A stretch of 64,000 nucleotides of DNA, from contig SMSO01000035.1 of assembly GCA_004764695.1 (NCBI GenBank), positions 2,108,001 to 2,172,000 on the forward strand, given 5' to 3'. This document shows, piece after piece, positions 7,096 to 26,932 of this stretch. Position 1 is the first letter of the stretch, and the number at the start of each line of letters is the position of its first letter. The position numbers and the translations under genes were made by a program. Source of the DNA: Schizochytrium sp. TIO01. Its lineage: Eukaryota; Protista; Bigyra: Labyrinthulomycetes. The notes beneath the pieces are model-generated. The model searched no databases, had not been told where the DNA came from, and saw only the letters and a program-made list of their open reading frames with translations.

Positions 7096-8658
7096 TTAAT
7101 TCAGTGGCCGTTCACCACGTTGTTGCAAGCACTTCGCACAGTAATCTAAAAGGCAAATATTGCAATGAAACATTGCTGCAGGGGGGGCGTGGAAAGTGCC
7201 ACAACGATCACAATAGTATCCCTTCAGGTATTCTTCGTCGCTTCGACGGTCAGCCATTTGTTGCGGCGTCTGGAGCGCATATGTATGTGAGCCGTTTCCA
7301 AAGCAGTCTATAACTTTTTGAGCCTTATGTGAGACTGGGGCAATTTTGATGCTCTTGTAATATCTGCGCCTTGCACAGGCACAAAACCGTTTGACAATAC
7401 AAGGTAATACGAAGAAAACCACGAAGACAACAATGGCACCTATAATTGAAATACCTCCATTAGTGTCACAAACTTCCCATTCGCAAGGACACCATTCCAA
7501 ATTGGTGCTCATGCAGGTTTGAAATGCAGAATAATTTGCTGGAGCCCCAAGCACTGTCTCAAGGTAGTAATTTGCTTCGTTCGTAGAGTTGCTCAAATAA
7601 GGCGCGCAATCATCATCCTCCTCACAAATCATATACTCAGATATACAGTTGCTGTCAATGTAGTATTGTACATGAGCCCATCCACCATCGTCCCGTGTAA
7701 AATGTTGGCCTACTGGGACGCAGTAACCAGCCCAATCTTCGCTTATACAGACTCCAATATTAGCGTCTGCAGGGCATGGATCATAGCCATACACTGTCTG
7801 CACTGTCGCGGTTGTTACAGCCGAGCTTTTTAACTCCAAGCTATCTGAGTTTCCCACAACTAATTCTTCAGAGCAGCCGCAAATAAGATTTTCTTGTGTT
7901 CCTTGTTGGCAGCCAGGGTCAGTCGGGTAGCTTGAGCAGCGCGAGCTTCCATAGTAGCGAGACGACCTGAAATACACAAGTGCTGCCCAAGAATATCCAG
8001 AATTAGAAATGAAATAACCTTTGGATGAAATATAGTATGATCCGCCACCGGACGATGTGTAATATGTCTTCGAGAATAACCTGTCTAATAAATCATAAGA
8101 AAATGAGTCGCCAGAGGAACCTTTGTTATGAACAAGTACACCTTCAACGAAGAACCAATGCGTTGGTTCAAGGCGTAATGTATATGTGGGAACTGCATCA
8201 GGCATGCGAACTAGATCGGTGACGTTAGCCAAGACAAGGCTTCCTGTTTCAGACATGAGAGCCTCATTTTCCTGTCGCATTTGCACAGCCTCCATACGAT
8301 AGGCTGATGCAGTAGTATCTGGTCGAAGTGAAATGACTTGTTTGCTCTCAAAACCATAATAGGGATGGTCTGGGGTTGACCAGATGAAAGAACCTGTCTC
8401 CATTTCTAGTTTCATTAGCTCGTTGGCTTCAGATGCGATTAGGTCTATTACGTTGGCCTCCACAACTTCTTCTAGTTCAAGATCATACGACAGCACACGA
8501 TCTCCTGGTTGTATATCTTTAATCGCTTTAAGAGACTTATCAGCCATATGTACTCGCATCGTGCCAGTAAAGCAAGAGCTGCCCTGTGATAATGTCGGGA
8601 GTAGCGCAAACAGGGTAAACGATACGCCACCCCACGACATAGTGCTGCTTAAGCGCAT
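7096..8658 (-). CDS. Signal peptide + Hint (intein-like) domain + Cys-rich ectodomain + TM + cytoplasmic Zn-finger protein
   Basis: First ATG at 8658. Hint block A CFTGTMRVHMAD...IKDIQPGDRVLS, block B STPDHPY, block F/G TYTLRLEPTHWFFVEGVLVHN. TM IIGAIVVFVVFFVLPCIV. C-terminal CDRC...HCNICLLDYCAKC. Confidence 0.9.
   Translation of the reverse strand: MRLSSTMSWGGVSFTLFALLPTLSQGSSCFTGTMRVHMADKSLKAIKDIQPGDRVLSYDLELEEVVEANVIDLIASEANELMKLEMETGSFIWSTPDHPYYGFESKQVISLRPDTTASAYRMEAVQMRQENEALMSETGSLVLANVTDLVRMPDAVPTYTLRLEPTHWFFVEGVLVHNKGSSGDSFSYDLLDRLFSKTYYTSSGGGSYYISSKGYFISNSGYSWAALVYFRSSRYYGSSRCSSYPTDPGCQQGTQENLICGCSEELVVGNSDSLELKSSAVTTATVQTVYGYDPCPADANIGVCISEDWAGYCVPVGQHFTRDDGGWAHVQYYIDSNCISEYMICEEDDDCAPYLSNSTNEANYYLETVLGAPANYSAFQTCMSTNLEWCPCEWEVCDTNGGISIIGAIVVFVVFFVLPCIVKRFCACARRRYYKSIKIAPVSHKAQKVIDCFGNGSHTYALQTPQQMADRRSDEEYLKGYYCDRCGTFHAPPAAMFHCNICLLDYCAKCLQQRGERPLN
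8125..8574 (-). other. Hint / intein-like autoprocessing domain (150 aa, no homing endonuclease)
   Basis: Starts with Cys (TGC, 8572-8574), contains TxxH and ends His-Asn (8125-8130). The +1 residue is Lys, not Cys/Ser/Thr. Confidence 0.9.
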
Positions 8659-20915: not shown

Positions 20916-21884
20916 CAACGACAAAGAGTACAGCTGGCGCAGCGTGTTAAGAGTCACATACGCCCTGCTAAGGTCCCGCGCTATGAGTGGTAGGAAAGCA
21001 TAGGTAACTCATGGATGGATGGATGGATGAGATGAGTCTACCGCCGCATTTAATGGGAGACAAAAAACACGCAGCTCCATCTCGGCGTCAAGCTCGATGC
21101 TCAGGACGGCAGAGCTCAAGAGCTGCTCCTAAAATGCTCCAACTTCGACTGGGTGGACGATGGCCACGATTTGGCCAAGGTTTACGCAGCGCAGCGATTC
21201 TCGGGAGCAATTTGGAGATGAAATCTGAAGATGTTTGCAATCTTGAAATCGCACCTTATTTCCACTGTATGGAGACGCTGATAGGGTTCACTTAGGGTAA
21301 AGTCCTAAGAGGGGGATCCTTAAAACGTCGATGGTCAACGTTAACAAACATAACATTTGCGAAGCAAATGAAAAAACCAACCTGTGCCATTAATTTGGAG
21401 AGCTAGCTGTGCGTTGGAAATCAAGGGCGGAGTGCAGCTATTTTGACCAGGATGTGGCTGCGATAAAGGCATAGGCGTACCAACTCGATCGATATCCATA
21501 TCTGCGAATCCTGCTTTTCAACTATTTTTTTTTTATGATGGTTTTCTTTTGTGGTTTTTATTTCGTTTTTTTTAAAGTTACTTCCGCATTTTCTTTTTTC
21601 CTTTTCTCTCGGAGGCCGAAATGTCCCATCCGCCTTAAATAGTATAGCTGCAGTGCATATGATACCAGTGTGTTTAAGGTGCTATAAATTACTAAGCTGG
21701 AGCGGCGATACCTAACGAGGTTAGGGACATAGAAAAAGGGCGCAAACAAGCGCCGAAAGTGGTTTGGGGGGGAGGGAAAAAACAGCAATGTTCGCGAAGA
21801 AGTGAAAGGTGATGTTAGCAGATAGTAATAGATAATGTGCTAGGTAATGAAGTGAAGTAGTGCTCTTTTAGGTTGTATAGTTGA

Positions 21885-22001
21885 AGGTCGATCTCTTAGA
21901 TTTTAAACTACAAAATTTGCAAAACTTGCATTTCATAGAAGGAGCTAAGACTCCATCACGGACTAGTTAGACTAACCCGCGACTCAATGAAATGATTTTT
22001 T
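21885..22001 (-). ncRNA. Putative Fanzor omega-RNA scaffold
   Basis: Directly after the stop codon: a CAUUUCAU...AUGAAAUG stem enclosing hairpins GCGGGUUAG/CUAGUCCGU and GGAGU/GCUCC, then UGCAA/UUGCA. The position matches TnpB/Fanzor omega-RNAs. Confidence 0.55.
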
Positions 22002-23798
22002 TTAAATCATGTCCTTGGATAGGTAGCGTAAAAGGATGCCTCTTGCGGCATGGACATCACGGTCTGCTACATGGTTGCACTTGGGATTAGGGCATTGGAA
22101 AACCTTGGATGCCCCGAGTTTATGGTGGAGGGTACCGCACTCATTGCATGTTTTTGAAGTGTAGCTCTCTTGGCAAAGAACAAGCTTGCACCACGGGAAC
22201 ATCTCAGCCTTATGAATGAGAGCCTGGCGGAACCCAAAATGGGACCAACGACACATCATTCGAACAGACTTCTTGGATATCCGTCGCTCCATCCTCCTGC
22301 TCATCTTAGAGGTTTCGAATTTAGGCAAGAGAATAACACGATAGTTTTCACAAAGCCAAAGCGCGAGCTTGCGGTGAATCTCAGTGATCTTGTTCTTGAT
22401 CTTGAGTTGGGCGCGATAGAAGGCGCGCTTCAAGGGGGTGTTGAAATCGTATGCAGTTTTCTTTTTATTTTCTTGAGCTTTATCAATCCTGCTTTGGATC
22501 TTATCAACGCGGCGACAGAGATAGAATATGGTTCTAAAATCTTTCCCTGTGCCCCATTCAATGGCGCGGCCATCAGCATCATACATCGTCTGAAACGAGC
22601 GAACACCTGGATCTAGAGCAATGACACTGTGGTGCGCCTTGGGTGCCTGGTCCATTGGACGCTTTTCTTCTTCTCGTAAGAAGCAGAAGTACACATGCCC
22701 AAGGCGATTCATTTGCACACGCATGGCGTTCTTAATCTGACTGGGGAACTTTTCTTTACGTGTTCGGAATTCTTTTAGAAAGTTGGAGGTCTTTGATTTC
22801 TTCGCATTCCAGGTACGTGCATTCACTTCGAAAATCTGTGATTCATCACGCTTGGTCCGAAACTTATAAAAAGATTGCTCATGGACTTTCTTTTGTACAG
22901 CGAGTTCTTCGTTTTTGGCTCGTCCAGAGTTAAGAGCCTTGAAGAAATCCAGAATCCCGGAATCACGGATAGCCTGTGGGACCTCGAGAACCCATTCAGG
23001 AGCATCATGCCTTTCTTTAGATCGAACGGCTTTCTTTTCTCCATAGAGGGCACCATACGTTTGGGGATTCCCATCTTCATCTACTAAAACCTGCTTCGTC
23101 TTGGAATCCTTTTTGATGCACGCTTCTTGATGCAATTTGATGGCTTCTTCCTCGCCCTTCGCCACGTCTCGGTGAAACGCAACGCCAGTATTGTAGGCTC
23201 TTCTAGTGACACCAAACCATTTAAGCAACTGTGTACGCTGATCTTTAGTAGGGTATACCCTGACCTTTTTGGCACGGACAAGGTCATATTCTTTCTTGAT
23301 GGTCTTGCGCGCCTTCGTGCGAGCTCGCTTCTTCCTCGCTGCGTCGTCGCCGTCTATTTTGCGCTGCTCGTTTTCCGTGATGCGATGCCACAAAGACGGT
23401 GATGATTCCGAGGAGGTCTTTGGTGAAGGTGTCTGCGTCTCCGGCATGTGCATCTTGGCCGTGTACCACGATTTTGACATTTTTTCTTTCGAAAAGGTGT
23501 TCCAGGAGGTCGACTGCGATTCGCGCAAGTCGGTCGCGGTGCATGACCACAACTTGGCCGATTCCGCCGCGGTCACAGGCGTCCAGTAGGGAGCACAGGC
23601 CTTGGCGTTTGAAATTGACCCCGCTACCGATGTCTTTGTAGACGGCGGAAGCATCTGGGTAGGCGCGCTGGAGATCGCCAACCTGGCGTTCGAGGTCCTC
23701 CTTTTGCTTGGCCGAGGACACTCTGGCGTAGATAACGGTACATCCAGAGCTGCGTTGCTCGCGGCCGGTGGAACCGCAATCAAAGATGCGCTCAACAT
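22002..23798 (-). CDS. tnpB: Fanzor2 / IS607 TnpB-like RNA-guided endonuclease
   Basis: HTH KKVRVYPTKDQRTQLLKWFGVTRRAYN; RuvC-I VIALDPGVRSF; ILLPKFET (Pro at the canonical Glu position) with the alternative Glu in QESYTSKTC; Zn ribbon CNEC...CPNPKC; RuvC-III DRDVHAARGI; basic NLS-like stretch ARKKRARTKARK. First ATG at 23798. Confidence 0.95.
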   Translation of the reverse strand: MLSASLIAVPPAASNAALDVPLSTPECPRPSKRRTSNARLAISSAPTQMLPPSTKTSVAGSISNAKACAPYWTPVTAAESAKLWSCTATDLRESQSTSWNTFSKEKMSKSWYTAKMHMPETQTPSPKTSSESSPSLWHRITENEQRKIDGDDAARKKRARTKARKTIKKEYDLVRAKKVRVYPTKDQRTQLLKWFGVTRRAYNTGVAFHRDVAKGEEEAIKLHQEACIKKDSKTKQVLVDEDGNPQTYGALYGEKKAVRSKERHDAPEWVLEVPQAIRDSGILDFFKALNSGRAKNEELAVQKKVHEQSFYKFRTKRDESQIFEVNARTWNAKKSKTSNFLKEFRTRKEKFPSQIKNAMRVQMNRLGHVYFCFLREEEKRPMDQAPKAHHSVIALDPGVRSFQTMYDADGRAIEWGTGKDFRTIFYLCRRVDKIQSRIDKAQENKKKTAYDFNTPLKRAFYRAQLKIKNKITEIHRKLALWLCENYRVILLPKFETSKMSRRMERRISKKSVRMMCRWSHFGFRQALIHKAEMFPWCKLVLCQESYTSKTCNECGTLHHKLGASKVFQCPNPKCNHVADRDVHAARGILLRYLSKDMI

Positions 23799-23807
23799 CG
23801 TCGCAGG
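23284..23807 (-). pseudogene. tnpA: IS607 TnpA serine recombinase lacking its N-terminal HTH and a start ATG
   Basis: Motifs IYARVSSAKQKEDLERQ, DIGSGVNFKRQGL, HRDRLAR and DLLGIITVF...HGKR. There is no ATG upstream of the catalytic Ser in this frame and no MerR-type HTH. Confidence 0.85.
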
Positions 23808-24331
23808 CTGCACAGATTGAACAATGAGACTTGTGATTTGCAGGTTTTTTTACAGGTGAGATCAACGTTCGTTTGATGTTAGGTTGAGATGCACAAGACT
23901 ATAATGCAGGGCACGAAAATATCTAGGCGGAAATAGATAGCCGTGTTGAGTAGCGGAGAATGCTCTGCTAATTTGGAAAGCGTTGTTGAGGATTTTGCAA
24001 GTTAAATTTGGTGCTTACGAATGCGTGTAAATCAAAGAGGAATTTGTTGTTCATCTAGTTATGAAAATCAGAAAAAGGTCAAATGCGCGCTGTGTATATC
24101 CTTTGGCGTTAAATAGTGCACATATATCCCAAATTTGCTGTTTCTCAAAAAGAAGAAAGTACCCTTCTTCAAATGTAAATAAAACAGCAGAAACTATCTC
24201 ACACAGTAACAACCTCAAAACAGTTGTGACAATCAAGTTGTTCTGATATCACGGTGACGGAGTACATGAAAAAAATCAAAAAGACTTTGGAGTAGTAACT
24301 ACAAAGCCAATTAGATTTATATGTTCATAAT

Positions 24332-26932
24332 TCACATAATGCAGCAAGCCACCTGTGACTGACGACCATTGTCAGCATGATTGGCCTCAAAGTCAACTTG
24401 GCATCCAACGAGCTCCTCAAACAAAGTCTCGGAGCGCACGTACTCTAAAGCTTTGAAAGAGGCACGGTGATGCTCATCAGTAAGCATTGCTGATTTACGT
24501 TTTTCTTTCTTTGTCGGTTCACCACCATCATAATCATTTGGCTGGAACTCTGCATTGACCGTAGTCGAACTGGGAATAAATGGTGGAACAATATGACGTT
24601 TCTCTAGTTTATCCCAATCGATGCCATCAAAGAAGGGATGCTCCATAATCTCCCTGACACCACGTGTACCGCACCCAAGTCGGGCTTCCGGATCATGGTG
24701 TAATAATTTGTGCACAAGATCTTGTGCTTCGTAGGTGAGACCGACGATGGGCTTTTCAGCTCTACCCGGCTCCTTTAAACGACGATGTAATTCGTTACGA
24801 TTTCTCTCCGCGCATTGTAATGCTGACTCAGACCACCGTACTTTACCAAGAACCATATTTCTTAACAACGTGCGATGAGACCGCTTTGGGCCACGAGTGA
24901 AAGGCATCCTTCCTAAGCAATAAAATTGGTGCAAAATCACCCCGAGTGCAAACCAATCTACAGAAACACCATAGTTAGGATAACGGGGCAAGCGATCTGG
25001 GTCTGCGGAGAGCCTTCGAACAGAGTTTTCAGTGTCTTCCAAGCGTCCGAGTCCATCGACATTCTCCCCACCATCATCGTTTTCATTATCACCATTGAGC
25101 AATGGAACTACAGGAATATTTGGCGACTTAAAGCTAGCTTGGAGCTGGTTAGCATTTCCACCAATTGCTACATTTGGTGATAATGGTGAGGCAATATAAC
25201 CTGGAGAGGTTGGCGAAGGTGAGCCCGGTGAACCTGGGCTCAGTAATGGGTTAACTGGGGAGAATGTCTCAACAGGTTGATTCTCTGGAGGTGGGAACAC
25301 CTTATTAGTGTCCACACGCAGAAATTGTCGAGTTGTCTTGTCACTCTGAACGTCAAGCATATTTGCGGTTGCCCGCATGTTGTTATTTGTATCTCCTAAT
25401 GAGGCTGTTCCTCCAGCTTTCCTTCGAGTTGTATTCGTAGTTTCAACTTTTGAAGAATTTGCTGCACCTCGTGCAAGTTGCGCGTTACTAGGGTCAAAAG
25501 CATCAACTCGTGCGGACTTAGAGGTGAGTGCTCGGAGAGATGATTGGAACGTTGAAAGCCAAGTTGTTCTTCGCGTTGTGCTGCTGCGTTTTTTAACCTC
25601 CGTCGGTCTCCTTCGGTCCCAACAGGGACCGAGATACATCTCTGGCGCAATGTAACCTGGAGTACCACAACACTGGTCATGACGAAGATCTTGTGCTGAT
25701 TCAGCAGTGACACTAAGACCAAAGTCACTGATAACAACATAGCCACTAGTGTCTAAAAGACAATTACTTGGTTTGAGATCTCGATGAATGATATGTTTGG
25801 AATGTAGATATCCGATACCCAACACAAGGCACGCCATCCAAAATTGTGCTACCTCGTGAGGGACTACTGGCATACGTCGTAAATGGAATTTGAGTTCTCC
25901 ACCTGGAAGAATATCAAGCAAAAAGTAGATATTTACATCATCTTGAAAAACTTGATGAACCCTTGCTACGAATGGGTAATCAACTTTTCGTAGAATGGTA
26001 GCTTCAGCCACAACTGTATTAAGTCGTTTCTTCGTAATAATGCGAACTTTATTCATTTCTTTCAAGGCCCATACAGCGTTTGTATCACTGTGCATCGCAA
26101 TGAAATTCAGTATTCGCCCATTTTGCAGATGAGCATGTATGCAGACGTATGTTCATTAGGTCAAATTTATCCCACAAATACATTTCACGTTAGCTTTTGC
26201 TTCCCTCCTATCCAAAATCTAACCTTACCATATCTTACAGAGGCGTGGTTAAACTCCCCTCGAAATATACGAAATGCTTCGGTTTTCTGCCACCTTATCA
26301 TCAACTTACACTACTCGAACGGCATGAACTTTGCCGAAACCTCCCTCGCCAAGCAAACGAAGACGTTCAAAATCACGCATTACACGGGGTTTCAAGGCGT
26401 AATTCTCGAAACTCGCCAGTGCATAGCCATACGGCCCATCAATAAAACTTCCAACGTGATCGTTCAGACGATCGAGAAGATATGCCATAACCATTTTCAA
26501 AGAGTTCGGGATTTTAGATACTATACCGGCGTTAATGAAGCCAGCAATATCCTGGTCAAGCTGAGTAACTGACTCGGCCCCTTCATCGCCAACGAAGTAT
26601 GGTTTGCCTGGTGTTAAATAAGTGAGTCCAATATGTCGCAAATAAGATAACAACTTAATGCCAGGTGGAATTGCCTGCGCTTGATCGCAATCTTCGTAAC
26701 AGAGAAGTAGCTGCAAAAGATTTTCATCACGAAGGTACCTCCAGAACAGAGATCGTTTGACCCCACTGGAAAGAATAGCGTCAGCTTTGAGGTTGGTGCG
26801 GAATCGTGCGAGCAGGTTCTGAAGATTTGAATAGGTCAGCTGCCGCTTGGTTTTGTGCACAGCAAACTTGGATATTGCACATTGTGCATCAAGAAAGCGT
26901 TGATCCTCCACAACTTGGTTGAGAATATTCAT
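24332..26932 (-). CDS. G-protein-coupled-receptor-kinase-like AGC kinase (RH/RGS-like domain + kinase); exons 26932-26310 and 26087-24332
   Basis: N-helix MNILNQVVEDQRFLDA, then a helical RH-like region, DFERLRLLGEGGFGKV, ALKEM, HRDLKPSN, DFG, GTPGYIAPE, VDWFALG and the AGC tail HPFFDGIDW...PPFIP. A GTAAGT...CAG intron (26088-26309) joins in frame (VRVVDTNAVWALK). Confidence 0.88.

Follow-up and report, generated by a model that had tools for sequence, protein, structure and literature searches.

The best match of the protein studied here, in both sequence and structure, is the nuclease ApmFz2 (also ApmFNuc; L79 of Acanthamoeba polyphaga mimivirus, structure 9b0l). The accessible parts of the work on this protein (PMC11832414) describe an N-terminal domain (NTD) that completes the RuvC fold, with N82 and S83 contacting the RNA pseudoknot, a basic thumb formed by residues 109–130 that clasps the target DNA, and a nuclear localization signal (NLS) within the structurally unresolved residues 1–53. 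The active-site layout of Fanzor2 and pro-Fanzor proteins is described in the same source and in the available part of Yoon et al. (10.1101/2023.08.09.552727). For IS607 elements, the accessible text of PMC6188088 and PMC3673617 states that the two open reading frames overlap and says no more; the latter also mentions that an Acanthamoeba ORFB has an N-terminal ‘insertion’ of 100 aa. In our literature search no publication turned up that reports an extended tnpA/TnpB overlap or overprinting; supplements lay outside that search, so published element maps may show the overlap. Term searches found no mention of TnpA or overlap in PMC11832414, none of overlap in PMC3627910 and PMC13565253, and none of ‘overlap’, ‘N-terminal’ or ‘frame’ in PMC10711439, and in the portions available of the Yoon et al. 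preprint and of PMC10530073 ‘overlap’ is used for other matters only.

The locus analysed here lies in a window of 64,000 nucleotides from Schizochytrium sp. TIO01 (contig SMSO01000035.1), whose own numbering is used throughout. It holds a 5′-truncated IS607-type copy in which Fanzor2 starts inside tnpA, 515 bases being common to both genes and read by Fanzor2 in the +1 frame; the conserved NTD encoded there, predicted to pack on the nuclease core, was likely overprinted on tnpA in a bacterial (pro-Fanzor) ancestor and inherited by eukaryotic elements, a reading to which we assign a probability of roughly 0.88. Its core, the overprinting of the Fanzor2 NTD on tnpA, had been proposed by an earlier sequence-only reading of the stretch and is strongly supported by phase, stop avoidance, codon fixation, motif survival and a structure match. 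The features referred to below are as follows.

21893..23807, minus strand: 5′-truncated IS607-type (Fanzor2) transposon copy of a multicopy family, delimited by an empty-site contig and contig depth
21875..22060, minus strand: predicted guide-RNA scaffold at the right end, from a predicted fold, with limits inferred from the family; the putative guide lies in the flank below 21893
22002..23798, minus strand: Fanzor2 open reading frame, 598 aa, ATG at 23798; best solved-structure match 9b0l
23284..23805, minus strand: tnpA remnant with the full serine-recombinase catalytic domain (YARVSS at 23730–23713), without start codon and most of the helix-turn-helix (HTH) at the N terminus
23284..23798, minus strand: dual-coding region, 515 nt, from the Fanzor ATG to the tnpA stop, Fanzor being +1 relative to tnpA
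23598..23798, minus strand: predicted-disordered leader, Fanzor 1–67, with basic SKRRT (31–35); its position matches the disordered, NLS-bearing ApmFz2 1–53
23439..23597, minus strand: conserved, predicted-folded part of the overprinted domain, Fanzor 68–120 (P70-Y71-W72, L83-W84, S110-W111-Y112), corresponding to the ApmFz2 NTD/RuvC-R
23313..23339, minus strand: basic run ARKKRARTK, Fanzor 154–162, at the position of the ApmFz2 thumb; candidate NLS role only
23808..23898, minus strand: host flank outside the element, stop-free in the tnpA frame by happenstance; a single-copy X1 contig begins at 23808, where an X16 contig diverges

A truncated copy with two open frames

The tnpA frame runs without stops from 23898 to its stop at 23284 and matches Pfam Resolvase (E 6.5e-20, profile positions 2–142 of 145), and the Fanzor +1 frame crosses this whole domain. 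Both frames are thus free of stops over the recombinase catalytic domain, as the sequence-only reading had stated; its 515-nt dual-coding overlap is the distance from the ATG at 23798 to the tnpA stop, and the motifs that it quoted from the Fanzor frame are all present. Its placing of ARKKRARTK over the tnpA RRRRR run needs correction: the latter (23341–23355) adjoins the former without overlap, reading DGDDA in the Fanzor frame, and ARKKRARTK lies over tnpA SEEEASSHE.

The ends of the copy were defined by comparing 21300–24800 with contigs of four public runs of 24 listed (X1, DNA; X17, RNA; X7, probable RNA; X16, guessed to be RNA). An empty-site contig in X1 joins 21859 to 23808 with 8 letters between them, equal to 21885–21892, so the element spans about 21893–23807. 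Loose contig ends of the element cluster at 21888–21897, and in X1 the element contig has a depth of 6324 against 473–559 for the flanks, which are single-copy. The tnpA start is missing because the copy is 5′-truncated, a member of a young multicopy family; an intron restoring that start was considered and rejected, the upstream sequence being host flank in X1 contigs. Past 23808 the X16 contig continues with 30 other letters, which by hand translation give the end of the TnpA HTH in the tnpA frame with the Fanzor frame still open, and a 617-aa transcript ORF from the MMETSP collection has 19 extra N-terminal residues that agree with this loose end. Longer family copies run on into the tnpA HTH, with an overlap of at least about 570 nt. 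A complete tnpA and the true left end of the family are absent from the contigs of the runs examined.

The window copy retains the Fanzor ATG 9 nt inside its left junction. Having neither a start codon for tnpA nor its DNA-binding domain, it cannot, judged from its sequence, make a complete TnpA, and any activity that it has is likely that of a non-autonomous copy making Fanzor alone. Both of its junctions (21892/21893 and 23807/23808) are preceded by AG, where a GG core without target duplication would be expected of IS607. The copy sits in a site whose left flank is intact, yet lacks the left end that TnpA should need. The X1 empty allele lacks 25 bases (21860–21884), beginning 9 bases past the insertion point and spanning the distal portion of the sequence that the putative guide would match; this is seen in one contig of one run and may be ordinary strain polymorphism. 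The predicted right-end RNA fold has a z-score of −2.93, with none of 200 shuffles equally stable. The right end has no further copy within the window.

Many internally deleted derivatives are seen in X1 and X16 contigs, joining 22054–22382 to 23608–23627, and at 23649–23781, with breakpoints clustered near 23609; they are probably non-autonomous elements of the same family. Short indels distinguish family copies at 22450–22478, in the RuvC helical insert, where the proteins P0001 and P0121 differ from the window. In X7 and X16, element contigs are far deeper than flanks, which would fit strong transcription, contig depth being a poor measure of expression. The neighbouring genes are of eukaryote type (RasGEF, NatA auxiliary subunit, PX-domain, armadillo-kinase and CLC genes), and this setting, together with near-identical MMETSP proteins, places the window protein with Fanzor2 rather than pro-Fanzor. 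Farther off, at 7096–8658 on the minus strand, a 520-aa ORF has an N-terminal Hint (intein-like) domain that falls below Pfam cut-offs for some models.

The overlap in relatives and selection on its frames

A protein search returned 126 relatives, many of about 600 aa with more than 90% query coverage, and W72, L83, S110 and W111 are almost invariant in an alignment of 47 long, hand-picked sequences. From viral, prokaryotic-genome and metagenome collections, 290 loci were retrieved. The queries resembled Fanzor or TnpA of the overlap type, and hits were ranked by similarity, which biases the samples to this clade; tnpA was matched in 187 loci and not in 103. A full tnpA together with an intact TnpB is present in 123 loci, all of them in the +1 phase. 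Removing elements with more than 90% core identity left 101, including that of the window, with a mean core identity of 49%. Conservation of the overlap, which the sequence-only reading had put forward as the check on its proposal, is evident: the +1 frame is open over the catalytic core of about 118 codons in 96 of 101 non-redundant elements, against 0.4–11.5 expected by chance, and contains 7 stops there, compared with expectations of 777 (codons redrawn by element usage) and 228 (permutation of synonymous codons). Not one of the 101 elements has an open +2 frame, in which 755 stops occur, compared with 966 and 766 expected under the two nulls.

Open +1 frames are found in every source (32 of 34 elements from prokaryotic genomes, 25 of 25 from metagenomes and 38 of 41 from viral collections). 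The five exceptions have one or two stops in the first part of the core, and their next ATG lies 16–23 codons before W72; since that ATG precedes W72, what is retained in every case is the folded part alone. Of the 34 prokaryote-collection elements, 3 have no in-frame ATG ahead of W72. Stops across the relatives’ Fanzor frame, named beforehand as the observation that would speak against overprinting, do not occur through the conserved part.

Third positions of tnpA codons are fixed exactly at Fanzor P70, F/Y71, W72, S80, L83, W84, S110, W111 and F/Y112 in the column table. At W72, all 98 Leu codons that precede a G have TG as their last two letters, compared with 64 of 433 elsewhere; for Val codons before G the counts are 67 of 82 at W84 and 74 of 75 at W111, compared with 35 of 328 elsewhere. 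The reduced synonymous freedom in tnpA that had been predicted is thus found where the Fanzor frame needs tryptophan. Because stops are avoided, these codons are fixed and TnpA residues are conserved, both frames are under selection.

The open frame could instead be a passive by-product of tnpA codon usage, with Fanzor translation starting at a downstream methionine. For the window copy alone, chance would leave the +1 frame open over the 119-codon core with a probability of 1–4% (0.011 with codons resampled by usage, 0.041 with synonymous codons permuted), and the permutation null still leaves 11.5 of 101 elements open; many +1 ATGs also come free from common Tyr-Val or Asp-Glu codon pairs, and RefSeq annotates the Moorena protein at 403–409 aa. 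This reading is nonetheless extremely improbable in view of the 96 open elements of 101, the position-specific fixation of TG, the persistence of the motif without an open tnpA frame, and the homologous domain that is ordered on the nuclease in the solved structure (PMC11832414, in its accessible part). The candidate downstream starts M107, M116 and M118 are not conserved and lie beyond the conserved P70–W72 and L83–W84.

That the domain is maintained as overprinted protein sequence is also seen where tnpA has decayed. The domain profile is matched by 18 of 61 unique loci that have an intact TnpB but lack a tnpA match, and 16 of these 18 have 1–12 stops in the tnpA frame there; the other 43, some of them cut by contig ends, have no domain match, and the domain is not universal among relatives. 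In the family of the window, one overlap variant introduces a tnpA stop but only E105D in Fanzor; it is the sole allele in X17 and X7 contigs, a minority in X1 and absent in X16. None of the six overlap variants listed makes a Fanzor stop (a further 82 variant rows exist), and these observations are evidence that the Fanzor frame outlasts tnpA within this family. The suggestion that overprinting explains the persistence of tnpA after loss of its start does not hold: the copy is 5′-truncated, and dead tnpA frames gather stops. What overprinting preserves of tnpA is a trace and not a frame free of stops.

A further sample was fetched by TnpA, using a narrow alignment built from overlap-type TnpAs after a broad one had given no usable pattern. 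It comprised 80 loci, 59 of them full-length and non-duplicate, of which 47 have an open +1 frame; among the 12 closed ones, seven have 18–29 stops in that frame, four have one or two and one has five. The seven are viral tnpA genes with no TnpB match downstream (in L363 only about 250 nt are available there). Six of them (L325, L335, L346, L361, L362 and L365), on viral contigs, combine an intact overlap-clade tnpA with no tnpB within 2 kb and form one tree group with L363; they are possibly a tnpB-less lineage or a domesticated resolvase.

Canonical elements differ. In 15 plasmid IS607 loci, hand-picked from the best 40 of 235 records, the +1 frame is open once and the P[FY]W motif is absent from all 15; the motif is present in 41 of the 59 loci of the sample fetched with overlap-type TnpAs. 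The presumed younger frame is confined to a subset of the relatives of tnpA. In annotated plasmid elements the overlap is 4–26 nt in 8 of 13, and the other five have a gap or no tnpB. The statement that bacterial IS607 genes overlap only briefly is accordingly right for canonical IS607 and wrong for the bacterial pro-Fanzor-type clade, whose open overlap has a median of about 600 nt.

The overprinted domain and its probable origin

The Fanzor2 ORF contains HTH_OrfB_IS605 (HTH_OrfB, residues 175–209), OrfB_IS605 and TnpB zinc-finger domains. Its active site comprises D396 (in DPG), E544 (in ESYTSKTC) just before the zinc-finger residues C551 and C554, and R580-D581, a layout that by motif comparison is of the Fanzor2/pro-Fanzor type. 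An AlphaFold model built with 47 sequences has a mean pLDDT of 79.7, with values below 50 at residues 1–30 and 32–67, values of 57–88 by block of ten at residues 71–120, and a long helix at residues 136–162. Residues 1–67 are predicted to be disordered and are poorly conserved.

Among the 50 structure matches listed, only 9b0l aligns from model residue 68 (chain residue 53), with Z 21.7, an rmsd of 4.2 and 423 aligned residues; canonical TnpB alignments start at model residues 171–173, and three CasX matches start at 102 with much lower Z. The NTD (RuvC-R plus thumb), absent from canonical TnpB, is present in the window protein according to both this match and a profile alignment that begins at ApmFz2 residue 78 and sets the SW motif of the window protein against ApmFz2 N82-S83-W84. 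The overprinted domain is homologous to the ApmFz2 NTD. By analogy with ApmFz2, it would complete the RuvC fold, touch the guide-RNA pseudoknot through its N/K-S-W motif and clasp target DNA with its basic helix.

The protein has two basic motifs, at residues 31–35 and 154–166. The second had been read as an NLS, an assignment not borne out by the alignment: query residues 152–208 align with 9b0l 111–166, which puts ARKKRARTK on the thumb (111–130), while the NLS of ApmFz2 lies in residues 1–53. An NLS role for ARKKRARTK is possible.

The domain had also been called eukaryote-specific, arising with its NLS by overprinting in eukaryotes. Several differences between groups could be read in that way. 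A basic patch before the HTH (at least six K/R in 12 residues) occurs in 8 of 15 window-clade elements, compared with 6 of 32 from the prokaryote collection and 1 of 23 on other viral contigs. Upstream of the core, 45 codons are free of stops in this frame in all 17 window-clade and all 10 labelled giant-virus elements (27 of 27), compared with 21 of 33 from the prokaryote collection and 13 of 30 other viral ones (34 of 63), the rows not being independent and the groups crude; and the ApmFz2 NLS was likely acquired after eukaryotic capture, according to the accessible part of PMC10530073. A strong basic patch is, however, found in only one of six labelled giant-virus elements, and a eukaryotic origin of the domain itself is refuted by the prokaryotic elements: 32 of the 34 in the prokaryote collection are open, cyanobacteria identified by name (Moorena producens 3L, Plectonema radiosum NIES-515 and Arthrospira platensis PCC 7345) and other bacteria share overlap and motif, and the complete motif is carried by a 564-aa protein grouped with TnpB of Moorena producens. 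Creation of both domain and NLS in eukaryotes is thus very improbable.

An origin in a bacterial ancestor is the preferred reading, with tnpA probably the older of the two frames because resolvase-type TnpA is widespread without the domain. On a quick TnpA tree of 118 columns, the overlap label changes four times compared with a shuffled mean of 20.6, 12 of 15 canonical controls fall on one side of a weak branch (support 71), and the viral genes with tnpA only fall within the overlap group, a position that losses would produce. The label clusters on this tree, and a single origin of the overlap is possible.

Start codons, meaning and comparison with known systems

MMETSP transcript ORFs of 601 and 617 aa span the whole overlap and start at their own methionine; RNA-run contigs covering the overlap show neither strand nor start. 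We infer that the domain is translated in the native host. It might conceivably be made as part of a TnpA–TnpB hybrid, the in-frame tnpA sequence being joined to TnpB by fusion or programmed frameshifting, rather than by separate initiation. A ribosome-binding motif precedes the first +1 ATG in only 2 of 31 prokaryote-collection elements, as such a hybrid would allow, but the crude Shine–Dalgarno pattern used found only one motif before tnpA starts as well and is uninformative. As the conserved residues belong to the +1 frame and not to that of tnpA, this +1 frame in most eukaryote-side elements extends without stops to the tnpA start and has its own ATG, and the MMETSP ORFs begin at their own Met, a hybrid is highly improbable.

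Separate initiation of Fanzor2 in the second frame is thus the reading that we retain. In giant-virus and window-clade elements no stop interrupts this frame as far back as the HTH, and the first ATG in it is often a few bases from that of tnpA, near-adjacency that suggests leaky scanning as a hypothesis. A distance of at most 60 nt between the tnpA ATG and the first ATG in the Fanzor frame is seen in all 9 labelled giant-virus elements, in 9 of 28 other viral ones and in 13 of 23 from the prokaryote collection; the rows are related, the groups crude, and common codon pairs account for many of these ATGs. In full-length copies, TnpA would move the element while the second, +1 start would yield Fanzor2, whose NTD would brace RuvC, guide RNA and target DNA; the nuclease would then cut empty sites matched by a flank-derived guide, as described for the family in the accessible part of PMC13565253. 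The truncated window copy would make Fanzor only. An ordinary bacterial two-gene operon placed in a eukaryote would leave tnpB untranslated, which a nuclease start near the transposase start would avoid. Overprinting may in this manner have let this IS607 lineage invade eukaryotes, through close starts, leaky scanning from one capped mRNA and a disordered leader with possible NLS motifs; we regard this as a tentative and rather doubtful proposal.

The domain that separates Fanzor2 from canonical TnpB would have a concrete origin in the second frame of the neighbouring transposase gene, and its dating to a bacterial ancestor means that it is not a eukaryotic adaptation. Ordered, RNA-contacting enzyme domains that originate by overprinting in cellular genomes and outlive the decay of the parent gene are rare, and this would be one of them. 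Some pro-Fanzor proteins are given starts too far downstream in databases: RefSeq begins Moorena producens TnpB about 155–160 residues late and omits the overprinted domain, giving 403–409 aa instead of 564, and tests of compact genome-editing candidates may have used truncated proteins. Close start codons would offer a testable answer to the question, left open in the available part of Yoon et al., of why only this clade colonised eukaryotes.

Among known systems, ApmFz2 and the window protein have in common a DPG RuvC-I motif, a Glu shifted next to the zinc finger, an NTD with N/K-S-W, a basic thumb and a disordered leader. They differ in sequence (20% identity), in length (520 aa in ApmFz2, 598 aa here) and in setting, the window copy lying among eukaryote-type genes. 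The mimivirus locus was not among the fetched loci in a motif look-up, and the likeness rests on the protein, not on its overlap. The pro-Fanzor IS607 elements of Cyanobacteriota (ISArma1 type; Yoon et al., 10.1101/2023.08.09.552727 and PMC10711439, in their accessible parts) have a serine-recombinase tnpA followed by a TnpB with DPG and shifted Glu, and the same +1 overlap and motif; compared with the window clade, their linker before the HTH is shorter (median 40 versus 67 aa) and their basic patch weaker. Canonical IS607 (Helicobacter pylori IS607 type, ISSis5; PMC6188088, in part) likewise has tnpB after a TnpA that combines an HTH at the N terminus with a resolvase domain. It differs in its brief overlap or gap, in having no NTD and in a +1 frame that is closed in 14 of the 15 control loci. 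Overprinted viral genes typically place a younger, lineage-restricted and partly disordered frame in +1 over an older, widespread gene. In the present case, unlike in those genes, the new frame is the NTD of a downstream enzyme instead of an accessory protein of its own, and it persists once the parent gene is dead.
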